NCBI GenBank assembly: GCA_026770705.1
Contig: JANJGN010000034.1
Location: 5,332,001 to 5,396,000 of the forward strand
Direction: 5' to 3'
DNA: 64,000 nt
From: Isurus oxyrinchus
Lineage: Eukaryota
The translations under genes and the position numbers were made by a program. Under the pieces are notes generated by a model. The model had not been told where the DNA came from, did not search any database, and worked only from the letters and a program-made list of their open reading frames with translations. Positions 7,932-57,301 of the stretch are shown here, one piece after another; the stretch's first letter is position 1, and every line of letters begins with the position of its first letter.

Positions 7932-8690
7932 ATTCTGAAATATAACGAGGAAATGCTGGAAACTCAGACAATCTGGCAGCTTCTGCCCAGAGAGAAATCG
8001 TCTTAATATTTAGAGTCTGCGTTACCCTTCTTCAGAGCTAAAGCGAAACACGATGAATTATATAATTTGTAAGAGGGGGTGGGACAGTTGGATAAAAATA
8101 GAACATCAGGAATAGATGGGAGCTTAGGAACGATTTGCGTAGTGGTCATGGAAAAACAATGATACTCGCCTTAATGGTAGTGTTAAAGACTAATGGAGGT
8201 GCTGACAGTGCAAGAAACCTAAAAAAGCAGGATATTTTCATCGCAGAAAAAGCATCAGCTCTCCATGTAAGCACATCATAGAAATAAGTAACAGATGGCT
8301 CTTTCGGCCCCATGAGACAATCTGTCACTTGCTTCTATGTTGTGCTTTCACAGGCCAATGCCATGTTTTCTGGCATTATCAGATTCAGCTGCCTTACCTT
8401 AATGCCACTTCTTCTGCCTTCAGCAAAATCATTGCTTTTCACTTGTTTAGCGTCAATGATATCTTTGTCAGTCTCTGCTGATGTCCCAACTGTCCGTGAT
8501 GCTTAATTTTATTCTCCAAATGCCCCATCCACTCGTATAAGTTCTGAAATTACATTAAGTTTTTACCTCTCCTTATCAATGAAGAATGGTCACAATTATT
8601 CGAATGTGAACTCAGCTTCTCTCTCTGCAGATGCTGCTAGGCCGATTGAGTTTCTTTCCCCCAGCATTTTCTCTGTTATTTCTGCAAAGA
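7932..8690. mobile_element. Fold-back element of two inverted, decayed PLE pLTRs
   Basis: The left end resembles the pLTR tail on the - strand, with hammerhead relic CTGAAGA-A-GGGT..GACTC at ~8010-8037. The right end has the + strand tail (ctctctctgcagatgctgctaggccgattgagtt..ccagcattttctctgtt). Central arms 8269-8301 and 8314-8347 are reverse complements. Confidence 0.75.
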
Positions 8691-9210: not shown

Positions 9211-9380
9211 NNNNNNNNNNNNNNNNNNNNNNNNNNNNNNNNNNNNNNNNNNNNNNNNNNNNNNNNNNNNNNNNNNNNNNNNNNNNNNNNNNNNNNNNNN
9301 NNNNNNNNNNNNNNNNNNNNNNNNNNNNNNNNNNNNNNNNNNNNNNNNNNNNNNNNNNNNNNNNNNNNNNNNNNNNNNNN
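9211..9380. other. Assembly gap (170 N)
   Basis: Run of N. Confidence 1.
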
Positions 9381-33404: not shown

Positions 33405-34340
33405 ACAGTTTATGCAGTGGAATATTCAGCTGGCCAGGAAGCATCTTTGGAGAGAGTGACAGAGTTAACGTTTTGATTTCATATGACTCTTCTTTAGCTC
33501 TGAAGACATCTACATATGTCAGTAGTTTCATACTGTGGAAGGGCGGGAATGAACCAAGTAGTGCGAAGTAGAAGATCGGGGTAGCTGGGAGCTCAGGAGA
33601 GATTTGAGCAGCAAGCCATAGCAACAAGATGCAGTAGGTGGTAATGATGTTTTAAAAGAGTAAGAAATATCCTAAACGTTGCTGAAAGATCAGATGGCAG
33701 AATATGTTAATGGCAAAACAATGACTAACTGCCTCTGAGAGCAAACTATAAATTATTTTCTTGTTCTGTTGAAGGAGGTGGTTGGAAAACAAATAAGGCG
33801 GGGGCAGAATTCATGGCTTTAACTTGTTGAAATTATTAATTGTGGAAGCCTGTAAAGTTCCTAATGGAAGGACGAGGTGCCGTTGCTCTAGTTGGAACTT
33901 CTTTACAGCCTTTAAGCCTCAGTATTCTTATCCTTCATTCAACGTTCTCCTACCACAGAGCCGATGTCTGACTGCTTCTTATGTTTTGATTTCAGATAGA
34001 ACTGACGGTGAATCTGTCATTAACATATTCTGCTGTCTCATTTATATGTCAGCATTAGCATCCCCCTTAATCTTGAAATGTCTAATTTCCACTCCCTTTG
34101 TCGTGTATTCATGATAAATTGGCAAATATTTATTGATGTTGCACATTTGCCCGCTCTTTTATTTTGATTCACAACCTTACCACCTCTCTCCAACACTGAT
34201 AATCACATAGGATTTCAGCTACCCTTCAATTCTGAAGAAGTGGGAAGGACGGAAACGATGGCTCTATTTAACTCTCCACAAGGGCTTTCAGAGTAGCTGA
34301 GATTTGTACATTTTTTGGTTCCTTTTTTCATATTTTCAGT
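33405..34340. mobile_element. Decayed PLE with inverted pLTR pair
   Basis: - strand tail and hammerhead relic at 33420-33500. GIY-YIG 3' end at 33835-33895 (ggaagcctgtaaagttcctaatggaaggacgaggtg, compare 52937-52975). + strand relic CTGAAGAAG..GAAACG at 34232-34257 followed by the tail. Confidence 0.7.
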
Positions 34341-46240: not shown

Positions 46241-46370
46241 NNNNNNNNNNNNNNNNNNNNNNNNNNNNNNNNNNNNNNNNNNNNNNNNNNNNNNNNNNNN
46301 NNNNNNNNNNNNNNNNNNNNNNNNNNNNNNNNNNNNNNNNNNNNNNNNNNNNNNNNNNNNNNNNNNNNNN
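46241..46370. other. Assembly gap (130 N)
   Basis: Run of N. Confidence 1.
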
Positions 46371-49250: not shown

Positions 49251-51068
49251 CACTGCTAACTTTTGACACCATTTGTATGCATTTTCACTAATGACCCTGT
49301 AAGTGTTGTACTCTCCAAAAATACTGTCCTTCCAACAGCAAAGGAATCAATTATCGCTGTTGCTCCAACTGTGCTCCTTTGCAGTTCCAGAATTTATGAT
49401 ATGTCTAAGTGTGTAAAGGGTGGAAAGGAAGACCAAGACTATTTTGGGTTCGGCGTAAGGTGGTGGGAGTTGGGGGGAGAGGTAGTTGTTGGGCGGGGGG
49501 AGGGGAATGGTGGTGGGGTTGGTGGTGGTGACGGGTGGTGTGGAACAGAGAGAGATCCTGTGGAATCAGTGCTATCTCATAAATTCTCACCACTTTTCAT
49601 CAAATTAATATGGTGTTTTCCCTTCCACAGAAAGGCAGCTAAACGACTTGATCACAAGTAAAACATTTATTTTTTTTTTGTGTTTTTCCAAAATATCACA
49701 CGGACATGTTTTTTTGTGATTATCGTTAGATTCTGAATGTACATTTTTATCATGCCTACCCTAATAACGCCTGATCAGATTTTTTTTCAAACCTATTTCT
49801 ACTAGAGCTGAAAAATAAATGTGGAGACAAAGGTAATCTTTCTCTGGTGTGAAAAGAGAATAAAGGTTGCTTTTCAGGAGATTTGAATAAATAAATCAAT
49901 CAGAGATAATCACGGTAATGCTTCCATATGTAACCATAGGCACCTTTAGGTGCGTAATCATTTCTGTACTAATATTGAAGAAAATATGCTGATATCCAAT
50001 TGTCATTAATCTGCAAAGATTATTAGGATTTATTCCTGTTGAGTTTAGTGACAGATCCGTGTTTTAGGCAGAACATAATATGAGGATATTGAGTGAGTTT
50101 TCAATATTCGCTTCCACTTCAAACAAATGCTGACAGACAGGTGAAGAGGCCGCTGAACAATATAAGCATTTGAGATGAACATTCCAGGGTATTAAGGTGG
50201 TTAAAGTCCAACATGTGCATGGAAAAAATCAAGTCTACCTATTTGTTGCGTAATGCATTTTGGAGAACTATTGGCCATGTAAATGATTTACTTATGGCTA
50301 TTGTCTACATTAAAGTAGATGGTTTAGGTGAAACCAAAGCATAAAAAAGGCCAAGCTTTCTGAGTCACTGGGGCACAAGTCCAACACAAGGCAGACAAAA
50401 AGTAAAAGGATGGGATTTGATGAAAAATAAATTATACACAATGCAGATTGTACTTCCAATTGAACTTTATGGTGGGAACACTTTGCTCCCTGCAATTACG
50501 TGGCATTTTTTTAAAATGGATTAGGTTACAAGAACGCCAAGATACTCTGCCACACAAGTCTTCTGATTACTACCGCAAACAGCACTTCACCTTACCCCCA
50601 TGTAAATTTATCATATTGCGAACTAGATCAGGAAAGGACATGTGATCGGTGTATGGACTTCAGAGCATTGTCTTGGAATTTTAGTGGACATGTCGTACGC
50701 GCTTATCGATATGCTCACACACCATTGGAATTCTGAATTTTTAATTACATTATAACATTTCTTGAAAAGTATATCCGCAAACTTCATCACAGTGACAGAT
50801 TTCCTTTAACATTGTCCACCAACTGCCATGTAATAAAAACCCTGGTCCTACGTCTGCAGTTGAATGTGCAATATGGTCCCTGTTGCAAGCTGAAGAGAAG
50901 TCATGCATCGTCCAAACATTGCACAGAAGTACTGTTCAATCAACAATTATGATTTTAAAATAGCTCTTAGATGTGATTCATAATTGAGTTTGTTTTTCGT
51001 GTGTTTGAAGATTAAACATGTGTAGCGTTATTCTTATCAATCTTGCAAAATGAACACGAATTTGAAAA

Positions 51069-51654
51069 AAAAAACAGAATTACCTGGAAAAAAACTCAGC
51101 AAGTCTGGCAGCATTGGCGGAGAGGATCAAAGTTGACGTTTTGAGTCCTCATGACCCTTCAAAACAACTGAGTAAAAATAGGAGAGGGGTGAAATATAAG
51201 CTGGTTTAAGGTGGTGGGTGGGAGGGAGAGAGTTGGGGGGGGTGTGGTGTGGGTGGCTGCAGGGAAAAGCAAGCAGTGATAGGAGCTGATAATCAAAAGA
51301 TGTCACAGGCAACACAACAAAGAGCTGTTGAAGGTAGTGATATTATCTAAAAGAATGTGCTAATTAAGAATAGATTGCAGGACACACAAGGAACAGCTCG
51401 AGTGGGGGTGAGGTGAAATAATACTAACAGGGAATAAAAGGTATAGATTTGAAATAATGGAAATAGGTGGGAAAAGAAAAAAAATCGATATAATTTATTG
51501 GAAAAAACCAAAAGGGAGTGGGAAGAAAGGAAAGGGTGTGGGGATGCAGGAGGGACTTCAAGATGTAAAGTTTTTGAATGCAATATTCAGTCCGGAAGGC
51601 TGTAAAATGCCTGGTCGGAAGATGAGGTTCTGTTCCTCCAGTTCCAGTTTCCAG
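51069..51654 (-). mobile_element. Older 5'-truncated PLE insertion (end of GIY-YIG + pLTR with decayed hammerhead at 51131-51169)
   Basis: Colinear with 52356-52990. Encodes LEEQNLIFRPGILQPSGLNIAF. Candidate TSD TTGAAAA at 51062-51068 and 51655-51661. Confidence 0.9.
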
Positions 51655-52341: not shown

Positions 52342-52355
52342 ATCAATAGAGTAAA
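52342..52355 (+). repeat. Target-site duplication, left copy
   Basis: ATCAATAGAGTAAA, identical to 57288-57301. Confidence 0.92.
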
Positions 52356-52416
52356 ACAAAAACAGAATTACCTGGAAAAACTCTGCAGGTCTGGCAGCAT
52401 CGGCGGAGAAGAAAAG

Positions 52417-52455
52417 AGTTGACGTTTCGAGTCCTCATGACCCTTCGACAGAACT
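52417..52455 (-). ncRNA. Minimal type I hammerhead ribozyme fold (variant core), pLTR copy 1
   Basis: Minus strand reads AGTT-CTGTCGA-A-GGGTC-ATGAG-GACTC-GAAA-C-GTC-AACT: stem I AGUU/AACU, stem II GGGUC/GACUC, GAAA box, GUC cleavage triplet. Minimal hammerheads are established in PLE pLTRs. Confidence 0.8.
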
Positions 52456-52498
52456 TGATTTTGAGTCCAAGAAAGAGTTGAAATTTCAGCTGGTTTAA

Positions 52499-52597
52499 GG
52501 TGTGTGTGTGTGTGGTGTGTGGGGGGGGGGGGGGGGGGGGGGGGGGGTGGGGGTGGTGGGGGGTGGGGGGGGGCGGAGAGATAGAGAGAGAGAGAGG
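52499..52597. repeat. (TG)n / G-run / (GA)n low-complexity block inside the pLTR (also at ~55856-55929 and, inverted, ~57020-57108)
   Basis: Read directly; lengths differ among the three copies. Confidence 0.95.
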
Positions 52598-52901
52598 TGC
52601 TTGTGTAGACAAACAAGCAGTGATAGAAGGAGATCATCAAAAGATGTCAGCGACAATGGTACAAAAGAACACATAGGTGTTAAAGTTAAAGTTGGTGATA
52701 TTATCTAAACGAATGTGCTAATTAAGAATGGATGGTAGGGCACTCAAGGTACAGCTCTAGTGGGGGTGGGGGGAGCGTAAAAGATTTTAAAATATTTAAA
52801 AATAGTGGAAATAGGTGGGAAAAGATAAATCTATAAAATTTATAGGGAAAAAAAAGGAAAAAAGGGGGAAACAGAAAGGGGGTGGGGATGGGGGAGGGAG
52901 C

Positions 52902-55638
52902 TCACGACCTAAAGTTGTTGAATTCAATATTCAGACCGGAAGGCTGTAAGGTGCCTAGTCGGAAGATGAGGTGTTGTTCCTCCAGTTTGCGTTGGGCTTC
53001 ACTGCAACAATGCAGTAAGCCAAGGACAGACATGTGGGCAAGAGAGCAGGGTGGAGTGTTAAAATGGCAAGCGACAGGGAGGTTTGGGTCATTCTTGCGG
53101 ACAGACCGCAGGTGTTCTGCAAAGCGGTCACCCAGTTTACGTTTGGTCTCTCCAATGTAGAGGAGACCACATTGGGAGCAACGAATGCAGTAGACTAAGT
53201 TGGGGGAAATGCAAGTGAAATGCTGCTTCACTTGAAAGGAGTGTTTGGGCCCTTGGACGGTGAGGAGAGAGGAAGTGAAGGGGCAGGTGTTACATCTTTT
53301 GCGTGGGCATGGGGTGGTGCCATAGGAGGGGGGTTGAGGAGTAGGGGGTGATGGAGGAGTGGACCAGGGTGTCCCGGAGGGAGCGATCCCTACAGAATGC
53401 CGATAAGGGGTTGAAGGGAAGATGTGTTTGGTGGTGGCATCATGCTGGAGTTGGCGGAAATGGCGGAAGATGATCCTTTGAATGCGGAGGCTGGTGGGGT
53501 TATAAGTGAGGACAAGGGGGGGCCCTATCATGTTTCTGGGAGGGAGGAGAAGGCGTGAGGGCGGATGCATGGGAGATGGGCCGGACACGGTTGAGGGCCC
53601 TGTCAACGATCGTCGGTGGAAAACCTCGGTTAAGGAAGAAGGAGGACATGTCAGAGGAACCGTTTTTGAAGGTAGCGTCATCGGAACAGATGCGACGAAG
53701 GCGAAGGAACTGGGAGAATGGGATGGAGTCCTTACAGGAAGCAGGGTGTGAGGAGCTGTAGTCGAGGTAGCTGTGGGAGTCAGTGGGTTTGTAATGGATA
53801 ATGGTGGACAGTCTATCACCAGAGATTGAGACAGCGAGGTCAAGGAAGGGAAGGGAAGTGTCAGAGATGGACCACGTGAAAATGATGGAGGGGTGGAGAT
53901 TGGAAGCAAAATTAATAAATTTTTCCAAGTCCCGACGAGAGCATGAAGCGGCACCGAAGTAATCATCGATGCACCGGAGAAAAAGTTGTGGAAGGGGGCC
54001 GGAGTAGGACTGCAACAAGGAATGTTCCACATAGCTGGGGCCCATGCGGGTACCCATAGCCACACCTTTTATTTTGAGAAAGTGAGAGGAGTTGAAGGAG
54101 AAATTGTTCAACGTGAGAACAAGTTCAGCCAGACGGAGGAGATTAGTGGTGGATGGGGATTGTTCGGGCCTCTGTTCGAGGAAGAAGCTAAGGGCCCTCA
54201 GACCATCCTGGTGGGGGATGGAGGTGTAGAGGGATTGGACGTCCATGGTGAAGAGGAAGCGGTTGGAGCCAGGGAACTGGAAATTGTTGATGTGACGTAA
54301 GGTGTCAGAGGAATCACGGATGTAGTTGGGAAGGGACTGGACAAGGGGAGAGAGAGGGGAGTCAGGATAACGAGAAATGAGTTCTGTGGGGCAGGAGCAA
54401 GCTGAGACGATCGATCTACCGGCGCAGTTCTGTTTGTGGATTTTGGGTAGGAGATAGAAGCAGGCCGTCCGAGGTTGGGCGACTATCAGGTTGGAAGCTG
54501 TGGGAGGGAGATTCCCAGAGGAGATGAGGTCAGTGACAGTCGTGGAAACAATGGCTTGATGTTCAGTGGTGGGGTCATGGTCCAGGGAGAGGTAGGAGGA
54601 AGTGTCTGCGAGTTGACGCTCAGCCTCCGCGAGGTAGAGGTCAGTGCGCCAGACAACAACAGCACCACCTTTGTCAGCGGGTTTGATGACAATGTCATGG
54701 TTGGACCTGAGAGAATGGAGTGCAGTAAGTTCAGAGAGAGACAGGTTAGAATGGGTGAGAGGAGCAGAGAAATTGAGACGACTAATGTCGCGCCGACAGT
54801 TCTCAATGAAAAGATCAAGAGAAGGTAAGAATCCAGAGGGAGGAGTCCAGGTGGAGGGAGAATATTGGAAATGGGTAAAAGGATCCGTTGAACTGGGAGA
54901 GGACTCCTGCCCAAAGAAGTGAGCCCGGAGACGAAGACGGCGAAAGAAGAGTTCAGTATCATGCCGAGCCCGAAATTCATTGAGGTGAGGGCGTAAGGGT
55001 ATGAAACTAAATCCTTTGCTGAGCACTGAACCTTCAGCATCGGAGAGGGGAAGGTCAGGGGGTATAGTGAATACACAGCTGGGGCTGGGATTGGAAGATG
55101 GGGTGGGGACGGAGGGACAGGCTGGGGTGGAGGGTACTAGATGGGTGTTGGTGTCGATGAGTTGTTGGAGCTTGCGTTTCTTCGCAGTTGAGAGAAAGAG
55201 AAAAAGTTTCTTGTTGAGGCGTCGGATGAGCCGAAGGATAAAATGAAACTGGGGGCACGCGCAGCTTTGAAAAAGGGTACGGCGGTGCTGCTGGAGGGAG
55301 AGGTCGAGTGTGTTCATATGGCGGCGCATGGCACTGAGTGTGGATTTCAGAATGTGACGGGAACAGCAGTCTGAGAAACGTTTTATGTCCCGGAGATACT
55401 GGTAATCCTGGGTGGGTTCGAAAGATGAGGGGTGGAATTTCAGTTGAAATCCACGTGGGGTAAGTCGGAGACGGAGACAGTCACTGAGAAAGGAGATATG
55501 GCTGTGAAAGCGGGTTTTAGTAAACACCTTGTCAAACACCAGGAGGGAAATGGAAAGCAAAGAAGGTGAACAAGGCAACAGAGAGATATGGAAATCTTGT
55601 CGAAGAGAGGAACAGAACTTCTTCAAGGAGGTAGGCAT
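52902..55638 (-). pseudogene. PLE polyprotein (N-terminal domain, reverse transcriptase, Cys-rich linker, GIY-YIG endonuclease), frameshifted; ~911 aa if the indels are repaired
   Basis: ORFs 53500-55638 and 52902-54065 join. Motifs: HISFLSDC..TPRGFQLK, LSKGFSFIP, IVIKPADKGGAVVV, FYLLPKIHK, TMDVQSLYTSIP, GVAMGTRMGPSY, RCIDD, LPFLDL, YKPTDSHSYL, linker CPRKRCNTC, endonuclease NLVYCIRCSQCGLLYIGET..R..EH..HFN..EQHLIFRLGTLQPSGLN. Three 1-bp indels near 53330, 53408 and 53518. Confidence 0.95.
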
Positions 55639-55773
55639 TTCTTGAAGAGCAGTGGCAGTCAGTTAAACACAGAGATGAAAACAAAGAAAACTGCAGATGC
55701 TGGAAATCCAAAACAAAAACAGAATTACCTGGAAAAACTCAGCAGGTCTGGCAGCATCGGCGGAGAAGAAAAG

Positions 55774-55812
55774 AGTTGACGTTTCGAGTCCTCATGACCC
55801 TTCGACAGAACT
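55774..55812 (-). ncRNA. Minimal type I hammerhead ribozyme fold (variant core), pLTR copy 2
   Basis: Identical 39-nt motif to copy 1; lies about 135 nt upstream of the ORF ATG at 55638. Confidence 0.8.
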
Positions 55813-56242
55813 TGATTTCGAGTCCAAGAAAGAGTTGAAATATTAGCTGGTTTAAGGTGTGTGTGTGTGTGTTGGGGGGTGGGGGTGGGGGGGGGGGGGG
55901 GGCTGGCGGAGAGATAGAGAGAGAGAGAGGTGCTTGTGTAGACAAACAAGCAGTGATAGAAGCAGATCATCAAAAGATGTCAGCGACAATGGTACAAAAA
56001 AACACATAGGTGTTAAAGTTAAAGTTGGTGATATTTATAAACGAATGTGCTAATTAAGAATGGATGGTAGGGCACTCAATGACTCAATGTACAGCTCTAG
56101 TGGGGGTGAGGGGAGCATAAAAGATTTTAAAATATTTAAAAATAATGGAAATAGGTGGGTAAAGAAAAATCTATAAAATTTATAGGGGAAAAAAAAAGGA
56201 AAAAGGGGGAAAAAGAAAGGGGGTGGGGATGGGGGAGGGAGC

Positions 56243-56979
56243 TCACGACCTAAAGTTGTTGAATTCAATATTCAGACCGGAAGGCTGTAAGGTGCCTCGT
56301 CGGAAGATGAGGTGTTGTTCCTCCAGTTTGCGTTGGGCTTCACTGGAACAATGCAGTAAGACAAGGACAGACATGTGGGCAAGAGAGCAGGGTGGAGTGT
56401 TAAAATGGCAAGCGACAGGGAAGTTTGGGTCATTCTTGCGGACAGATCGCAGGTGTTCTGCAAAGCGGTCACCCAGTTTACGTTTGGTCTCTCCAATGTA
56501 GAGGAGACCACATTGGGAGCAACGAATGCAGTCGACTAAGTTGGGGGAAATGCAAGTGAAATGCTGCTTCACTTGAAAGAGGTGTTTGGGCCCTTGGACG
56601 GTGAGGAGAGAGGAAGTGAAGGGGCAGGTGTTACATCTTTTGCGTGGGCATGGGGTGGTGCCATAGGAGGGGGTTGAGGAGTAGGGGGTGATGGAGGAGT
56701 GGACCAGGGTGTCCCGGAGGGAGCGATCCCTACGGAATGCCGATAAGGGGGGTGAAGGGAAGATGTGTTTGGTGGTGGCATCATGCTGGAGTTGGCGGAA
56801 ATGGCGGAGGATGATCCTTTGAATGCGGAGGCTGGTGGGGTTATAAGTGAGGACAAGGGGGGCCCTATCATGTTTCTGGGAGGGAGGAGACGGCGTGAGG
56901 GCGGATGCGCAGGAGATGGGCCGGACACGGTTGAGGGCCCTGTCAACGACCGTCGGTGGAAAACCTCGGTTAAGGAAGA
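56243..56979 (-). pseudogene. 5'-truncated second copy of the PLE ORF (RT thumb, linker, GIY-YIG); reading frame open throughout
   Basis: Manual translation gives FLNRGFPPTVVDRAL..HDRAPLVLTYNP..KHIFPSPPLSAFRRDRSLRDTLVHS..CPRKRCNTC..GLNIEFNNFRS with no stop. Roughly 2% diverged from the first copy by eye. Confidence 0.92.
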
Positions 56980-57072
56980 TGATCTGCTTCTATCACTGCT
57001 TGTTTGTCTACACAAGCACCTCTCTCTCTCTCTATCTCTCCGCCCACCCCCCCACCCCCCCACCCCCCCCCC

Positions 57073-57103
<31 letters not shown>

Positions 57104-57287
57104 ACACCTTAAACCAGCTTATATTTCAACTCTTTCTTGGACTCGAAATCAAGTTCTGTCGAAGGGTCATGAGGACTCGAAACGTCAACTCTTTTCTTCT
57201 CCGCCGATGCTGCCAGACCTGCTGAGTTTTGCCAGGTAATTCTGTTTTTGTTTTGGATTTCCAGCATCCGCAGTTTTCTTTGTTTTT
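56978..57287 (+). repeat. Inverted pLTR fragment of the PLE
   Basis: Reverse complement of ~55677-55971. The junction with the ORF fragment shares a 2-nt GA microhomology (56978-56979). Confidence 0.95.
57152..57190 (+). ncRNA. Minimal type I hammerhead ribozyme fold (variant core), inverted pLTR copy 3
   Basis: agttctgtcgaagggtcatgaggactcgaaacgtcaact read directly on the + strand; predicted cleavage after 57186. Confidence 0.8.
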
Positions 57288-57301
57288 ATCAATAGAGTAA
57301 A
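57288..57301 (+). repeat. Target-site duplication, right copy
   Basis: ATCAATAGAGTAAA, identical to 52342-52355. Confidence 0.92.

Follow-up and report, generated by a model that had tools for sequence, protein, structure and literature searches.

Hammerhead motifs in the window

The window, a 64-kb stretch of Isurus oxyrinchus DNA, contains an exact 39-mer three times, against a chance expectation of zero (100 shuffles). The 39-mer has the layout of a minimal type-I hammerhead ribozyme, with a 4-bp stem I (AGUU/AACU), a 5-bp stem II (GGGUC/GACUC), a bulged A after A9, the sequence GAAA, the palindrome ACGU and the cleavage-site triplet GUC. Core position 6, which is 57159 in the motif at 57152-57190, reads U. 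The features at the locus are as follows.

57152..57190, + strand: minimal type-I hammerhead motif with U6 at 57159, in the inverted pLTR arm; predicted cut at 57186/57187; fits the minimal hammerhead (min-HHR) consensus except at position 6
55774..55812, - strand: motif of identical sequence, with U6 at 55805, in the pLTR upstream of the ORF; from 5′-end mapping, it likely makes up the transcript's first 39 nt
52417..52455, - strand: same motif, in the 3′ pLTR; U6 at 52448
57120..57126, + strand: TATA-like box, 32 nt before the first base of the motif; probable promoter element
57191..57287, + strand: stretch that follows the motif and runs to the longer tail end; copies stop at about +100 or +136
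52902..55638, - strand: Penelope-like ORF (RT, CX4CX2C linker, GIY-YIG), broken by a 21-nt deletion and 1-nt indels
56978..57287, + strand: inverted 5′-truncated pLTR arm
52342..52355, + strand: left target-site duplication, 14 bp
57288..57301, + strand: right target-site duplication, 14 bp
51067..51643, - strand: decayed remnant of an older copy from the same lineage, comprising the ORF end and pLTR; its motif at 51131-51169 has U6, C3G and G5U

An initial annotation had reported the identical motif at 52417, 55774 and 57152, with paired stems and intact GAAA, GUC and ACGU, and all of this is borne out, two of the copies being on the minus strand. It had placed the motif in three pLTRs of a young element. 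All three copies do lie in pLTRs, but they belong to one composite insertion (52356-57287) between the 14-bp target-site duplications, in which a minus-strand partial tandem of 1.3 units is combined with the inverted arm, and the element itself is not intact. Compared to a unit of the array described below, it has 95 substitutions in 3,380 aligned columns, the 21-nt deletion and 1-nt indels. Because the three copies share one insertion they are not independent, and with the ORF broken the window alone could not separate a family trait from a private change.

Older relatives are also present. The relative at 51131-51169 was said to carry U6, and it does, but it is decayed and also has C3G and G5U. 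Three further old and decayed ends, all of this lineage, were found at 8630-8650 (+), 7963-8035 (-) and 33425-33497 (-). A relic described as reading CUGAAGA at ~8029-8035 does so (8006-8035, -) and has the tail of the U6 Penelope family. The second such relic, at 34232-34238, also reads CUGAAGA but has neither the stem II nor the tail of this family; the stretch 34232-34260 (+), CTGAAGA then GGAAAC, lacks the family's stems and may be another hammerhead family or chance. Runs of N (9211-9380 and 46241-46370, 300 bases in total) are distant from the motif copies. An Rfam scan of the window gave no matches to E 1, which says little, as Rfam may also miss the A6 minimal form of this family. The earlier statement that motif searches miss U6 is true by construction for a CUGANGA descriptor, while the Rfam blank is uninformative about it.

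The element is of the Neptune type

A copy elsewhere in the genome (L306) has an intact 918-aa ORF downstream of a U6 motif. It contains DKG, YIDD and, at its C terminus, GIY-YIG, i.e., a single RT and EN ORF, with a CX4CX2C linker at residues 784-792 of the CX2-5CxxC form given for Neptune-type elements (PMC8557442). The Pfam match to GIY-YIG (E 4e-4) is below the Pfam cut-off. A Pfam search returned no match for the RT part, and a PDB sequence search with this part returned two chance hits only. The partial tandem, the inverted 5′-truncated arm and a 30-40 bp tail are present. Neptune-type EN+ Penelope-like elements (PLEs) share the RT and C-terminal GIY-YIG ORF, the linker, and the arrangement of partial tandem, inverted arm and tail, and the available parts of their description point to no architectural difference (Craig, 2021; PMC8557442). 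By ORF architecture and linker, the element is a Neptune-type PLE (Neptune/Nematis type). A non-LTR retrozyme is ruled out, since the unit is 3,323 nt long and encodes RT-EN instead of being a small non-coding tandem.

The young family is recent: units of a head-to-tail array differ by 4-13 of 3,323 nt. This array (C1149:4800-31915, L299-L304) contains at least eight units that are nearly identical and recur every 3,323 nt. None of the units examined has a full-length ORF, the longest ORF being 528 aa.

The min-HHRs of PLEs (Cervera and de la Pena, 2014; PMC4209133) share with the motif described here the location in the pLTR, a 4-bp stem I (stem II is likewise present here), the bulged base 9/10.1 after A9, G10.1-C11.1, GAAA, a palindromic stem III without loop 3 (15.1-16.1), an NUH triplet and massive dispersed copies. 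The two differ at the core. The min-HHRs in the available part of Fig. S3 of that paper are all A6, the descriptor used there required A6 (CUGANGA), and the only core variant named in the parts available is U3-A8. The U6 motif also differs in its place at the inferred transcript start. A6 is found here only in the ancestral subfamilies. The U6 motif is a variant descended from min-HHR members, not a conforming member.

U6 is fixed in the young family

Position 6 was counted genome-wide as exact pattern matches in an assembly of 4.98 Gb. A 31-base pattern of the young family that leaves positions 6 and 7 open is matched exactly 78,939 times; the first 100 matches listed comprise 98 U6, two C6 and no A6. 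The initial annotation would have been refuted by a majority of A6 among young copies, and this is not seen: A6 in the young background has 138 matches vs. the 78,939 for the young pattern. When the loop is left free, U6 has 91,153 matches vs. 1,655 for A6. Matches to the older form of stem II number 10,797 and are mixed (56 U6 and 44 A6 among the first 100 listed). Old, decayed families are under-represented among exact matches, and these U6/A6 ratios therefore overstate the shift in abundance. The counts rule out U6 as a private mutation or decay; it is a family-wide trait, fixed in the young family. The proposal that U6 goes back to the source elements and does not reflect post-insertion decay agrees with both these counts and the subfamily majorities below.

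C6 is also more common than a control change. Genome-wide it has 1,655 matches, whereas a T-to-C substitution in stem II, used as the control, has 240, and U7 accompanies 88 of 100 C6 copies vs. 49 of 100 control copies (the first 100 matches listed in each case). The excess and the U7 enrichment together imply that some C6 templates amplified. A single discrete C6 subfamily is not supported, as 30 C6 loci have flanks of several subfamilies and only five share one type.

Parts of the element occur in assembled contigs from public runs of four organisms, and one contig from one of these organisms matches 57149-57230 without difference. These data are assembled contigs whose RNA status is mostly guessed, with no start, end or strand readable. 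The public-run table has no variant row at 57159, a weak negative given that known C/T variation at 57160 is likewise omitted.

U6 arose in an ancestral source element

We clustered copies on their flanks alone, using 186 distinct copies that extend from the TATA-like box to the tail (from 290 loci and the window). Subfamily majorities exclude two G6 copies and copies picked for A6 in the young background. The majorities of S1, S2 and S3a have A6, and those of S3b to S8 have U6. Divergence from the subfamily's own majority is 9.7% in S1 and 1.3% in S8; because the groups were sampled by different patterns, such values give a rough age order only. Distances between 3′ UTR majorities are 5.9% (S2-S3a), 3.4% (S3a-S3b), 2.5% (S3b-S4), 6.8% (S4-S5), 4.1% (S5-S6), 4.1% (S6-S7), 5.0% (S7-S8) and 14.0% (S3b-S8), S1 being left out for having too few long copies. 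The tabulation of position 6 against copy age that had been suggested thus puts A6 at the old end and U6 at the younger end. With the A6 groups at the old end of the ladder, the ancestral state is A6, and the sampled ladder has a single origin of U6, in an ancestral source element from which all later sampled subfamilies inherited it.

The last A6 and first U6 majorities (S3a and S3b) differ at 4 of ~130 positions around the motif. A second core change accompanying U6 was not found among the subfamily majorities, and a U6-specific compensatory core change is therefore rejected. An A6 branch with U7 and C17 also amplified (one flank cluster).

Constraint on the motif after the change

Within the 39-mer, the six U6 majorities differ at positions 9, 14, 20, 21 and 35 only. 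These correspond to N7, a stem-II base whose pair goes from A-U to G·U, two bases of loop II, and H17 (U/C). Changes thus affect 4 of 7 free positions vs. 1 of 31 constrained positions, with the pair kept in that one case (Fisher p 0.002), and the unpaired catalytic positions are unchanged. Neighboring sequence has changed more freely: S3b and S8 differ at 44 of 315 positions in the 3′ UTR and at 10 of 56 third positions in the ORF, and 8 of the next 58 positions downstream of the motif vary among the U6 majorities. Against a neutral change of 14%, zero disruptive changes at 31 sites has p ~0.01, and at most one change has p ~0.06. These values make the case for constraint on the motif after U6 only moderate.

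Pairing was scored in 52 of 71 copies, picked as closest to the majorities, a choice that favors pairing. In this alignment, 95.2% of cells are paired, and stem II is 98.8% paired (49 distinct rows). Double-sided pair changes are absent from the 52 copies, a lineage that spans little divergence, and the structure score is no better than in the shuffle control. Pair changes are one-sided only, namely A-U/G·U at 10.2 and a C·A to U-A change in stem I before U6. The RNAalifold consensus retains stem II alone of the motif. The stems, on whose conservation or covariation the initial annotation had staked its case, and the remaining core are conserved after U6, but without double-sided covariation. 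Judged from these alignments, the pattern is one of hammerhead-like conservation, not covariation.

Copy 5′ ends and the transcript start

Copies for mapping 5′ ends were chosen by sequence downstream of the motif, which avoids selecting for the whole motif. We used 40 of 45 planned stretches; for one anchor 6 of the 100 matches listed were omitted on purpose, and for another 30 of the 100 listed were entered as loci. The search gave 148 hits, all from the start of contig C1, with the arms of inverted pairs counted separately. The tail filter retained 146, comprising 63 copies that extend to the TATA-like box and 83 that are 5′-truncated, and setting aside four copies that end within the anchor left 142. 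None of the 142 ends within +33 to +39, around the cut site at +35/+36. Ends within -3 to +3 make up 33 of the 114 copies at risk, with a mode at +1, vs. 6 of 81 within -10 to -4 (p 2e-4). A similar result was obtained for 80 older copies (35 A6, 18 U6, 5 other and 22 unread), in which a doubtful end at +37 is the only one around the cut site. A genomic footprint of cleavage, i.e., copies beginning right after GUC, was thus sought and is absent in both the U6 and the A6 groups. Since the A6 ancestors likewise lack such ends, this footprint cannot show that U6 changed anything. Inserted copies are templated on RNA that is uncut at GUC.

A TATA-like box is found at -28 to -32 in all eight subfamily majorities, though the spacer varies. 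The simplest reading of the ends at +1 is run-off at the 5′ end of the RNA, with the motif as the first 39 nt of the transcript, and we infer that transcription starts at the A of AGUU under the TATA-like box at about -30. The tail ends at +100 and +136 appear, by analogy, to resemble the two start sites of reverse transcription in Anolis PAc (PMC11167929).

Several other observations concern this region. A possible 88-nt intron is predicted from sequence in the 5′ UTR (unit +85 to +172, within 55812-55638 on the minus strand of the window), with AG|GTAA at +83, a TTGAC that looks like a branch site at +151 and an AG just ahead of the main ATG (+175), and it resembles the 5′ UTR intron of D. 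virilis Penelope. Loop II of the young family has gained an ATG (+18), which opens an 18-codon upstream ORF (57169-57225, +). The spacer preceding the motif (57140-57149, +) now repeats, in the youngest subfamily, the 3′ strand of stem II and GAAA, and could compete for stem II in read-through transcripts. Many insertions are head-to-head pairs of 200-300 bp with both arms stopping at or inside the motif (L129, L130, L139, L142, L143, L145, L162-L165, L187 and L188), a pattern that priming of both cut target strands on the tail would produce.

Predicted folds

In the 39-mer alone, stem II is predicted with a probability of 0.98 and stem I with 0.2-0.5. In contexts of 64-140 nt, ViennaRNA mostly favors other folds, and stem I falls below 0.1 for the young U6 sequence. 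Cofolding two 39-mers gives a different predicted fold as the minimum (MFE -18.2), with a partial hammerhead dimer at -11.9. In a natural A6 copy in the young background (L032), UGACG is predicted to pair fully with CGUCA, which would form an inactive helix between core and cut site; the L032 39-mer with this helix has -11.3 kcal/mol, vs. -7.3 kcal/mol for the U6 39-mer of the window, where U6 would break the helix. Every sampled subfamily is also predicted to form a long 5′ hairpin between about +1-16 and +42-60; in S3b-S5, the probability of a U6-G52 pair is 0.6-0.9. Along the U6 lineage the hairpin becomes less stable, its predicted energy going from -15.8 to -9.4 kcal/mol. We rejected the hairpin as a conserved fold, as it is predicted for each sequence and absent from the RNAalifold consensus, and we retain it as a rival to the hammerhead.

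Possible functions of the U6 motif

Our preferred reading, with a probability of about 0.5, is that the U6 motif is a slowed, dimer- or protein-assisted ribozyme at the 5′ end of the transcript that would be dispensable for insertion. In this reading, the capped 5′ end of the element RNA would consist of the motif. Reverse transcription would begin in the tail (+100 or +136), read through the uncut motif and often run off the 5′ end at +1. The U6 ribozyme would cut only late, as a dimer, aided by the protein of the element. Fast cutting would strip the mRNA of its cap and deprive the template of its tail, so that slowing of the core would cost the element nothing or would help it. Residual cutting would occur between two motifs 3,323 nt apart, paired via their ACGU palindromes. 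It would keep C3-G8, G12, GAAA, A15.1-U16.1 and a non-G position 17, and would perhaps free unit-length RNA from tandem read-through.

A close experimental parallel is PAc, a Poseidon element of Anolis carolinensis (Frangieh, 2024; PMC11167929). It shares the position of the pLTR hammerhead, just upstream of the tail, the use of unprocessed RNA as template and the absence of RNA ends at the cut site. Its hammerhead needs protein, dead mutants still insert in vitro, and the tail is where reverse transcription begins. The positions tested in PAc are C3 and G8, and the parts of the paper available name no position-6 variant. The PAc ORF begins in stem II, in contrast to the main ATG at +175 here, and the element described here has the Neptune-type cysteine linker.

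A natural change at the same core position is known from the phage Bcep176 hammerhead, which has A6C (Perreault, 2011, PMC3088659; Naghdi, 2020, PMC7151607). That is a single phage motif tested as a monomer, with low but detectable activity in Mg2+ and good activity in Mn2+ (PMC7151607). The motif here is U6, lacks stem III, is fixed in ~10^5 retroelement copies and is known from sequence alone. Mutants of the CUGA turn have low activity (PMC9901934), and the passages on position-6 mutants available from these three papers give no rate for A6U. The minimal hammerhead is already weak and, with a CUGA-turn mutation, may be practically dead.

The natural A6C is thus published; A6U was not found in the literature searched, which consisted mostly of titles and the beginnings of abstracts and covers the field incompletely. 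Small hammerhead variants of PLEs were reportedly the subject of work by Lunse et al. in 2017, which may bear on novelty. The available part of a 2026 retrozyme preprint contains no passage on hammerhead cores.

A second reading, which we hold as tentative and on balance doubt, is that the motif is non-catalytic and is kept as a structure or sequence signal: a start site or internal promoter, a protein-binding stem II, or the 5′ hairpin with its U6-G52 pair. Because the motif overlaps the probable start site, promoter function or protein binding could explain its conservation. D. virilis Penelope has an internal promoter just past its start site (PMC2377424), and Naiads proliferate without canonical hammerheads (PMC8557442). 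The lack of copy ends at the cut site, the consensus fold with stem II alone, the hairpin predicted in every sampled subfamily, and the change of position 6 to C in amplified copies all agree with such a signal. However, changes in the motif are confined to places that a hammerhead tolerates (N7, H17 as U/C, loop II and the wobble pair), the unpaired catalytic positions are constant among majorities, and the hairpin weakens along the lineage and is missing from the consensus.

It is improbable that U6 is compensated, with activity near that of the A6 ancestor in the real setting, i.e., in a protein-bound dimer or with another metal ion, and with the inactive helix broken. The stronger predicted helix with A6 in the young background and the Mn2+ activity of A6C are in keeping with this, but no second core change came with U6, and the A6 branch with U7 and C17 amplified even though it is able to form the inactive helix. 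In addition, pairwise mutagenesis of another hammerhead rescued the CUGA turn only by a C3-G8 swap (PMC9901934). Also unlikely is a functionless relic, in which U6 hitchhiked on a successful source element with too little time for decay: few source lineages, a single event, no covariation and a PAc hammerhead whose function is dispensable in vitro (PMC11167929) would suit it, but changes cluster in free positions (as above) while neighboring sequence diverged by ~14%.

A wider extension of the slowed-ribozyme reading is speculative, and we consider it more doubtful than that reading itself. Shark-like Neptune elements may have repeatedly tuned down the 5′-end ribozyme by changing A6 (to U here and to C in side branches), giving a protein-gated slow switch between translation and insertion of uncut RNA and the release of unit-length RNA; this de-tuning would have helped the family to reach ~10^5 copies.

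Implications

Why PLEs carry hammerheads is still an open question (PMC8557442, PMC11167929). Descriptors based on CUGANGA would miss most copies of the U6 Penelope family in the Isurus oxyrinchus genome. In this genome, a lineage went on amplifying to ~10^5 copies after a change in a core base thought to be essential, with the fold kept. The natural series of A6, U6 and C6 is ready for cleavage and transposition assays, and would test whether these elements need self-cutting.
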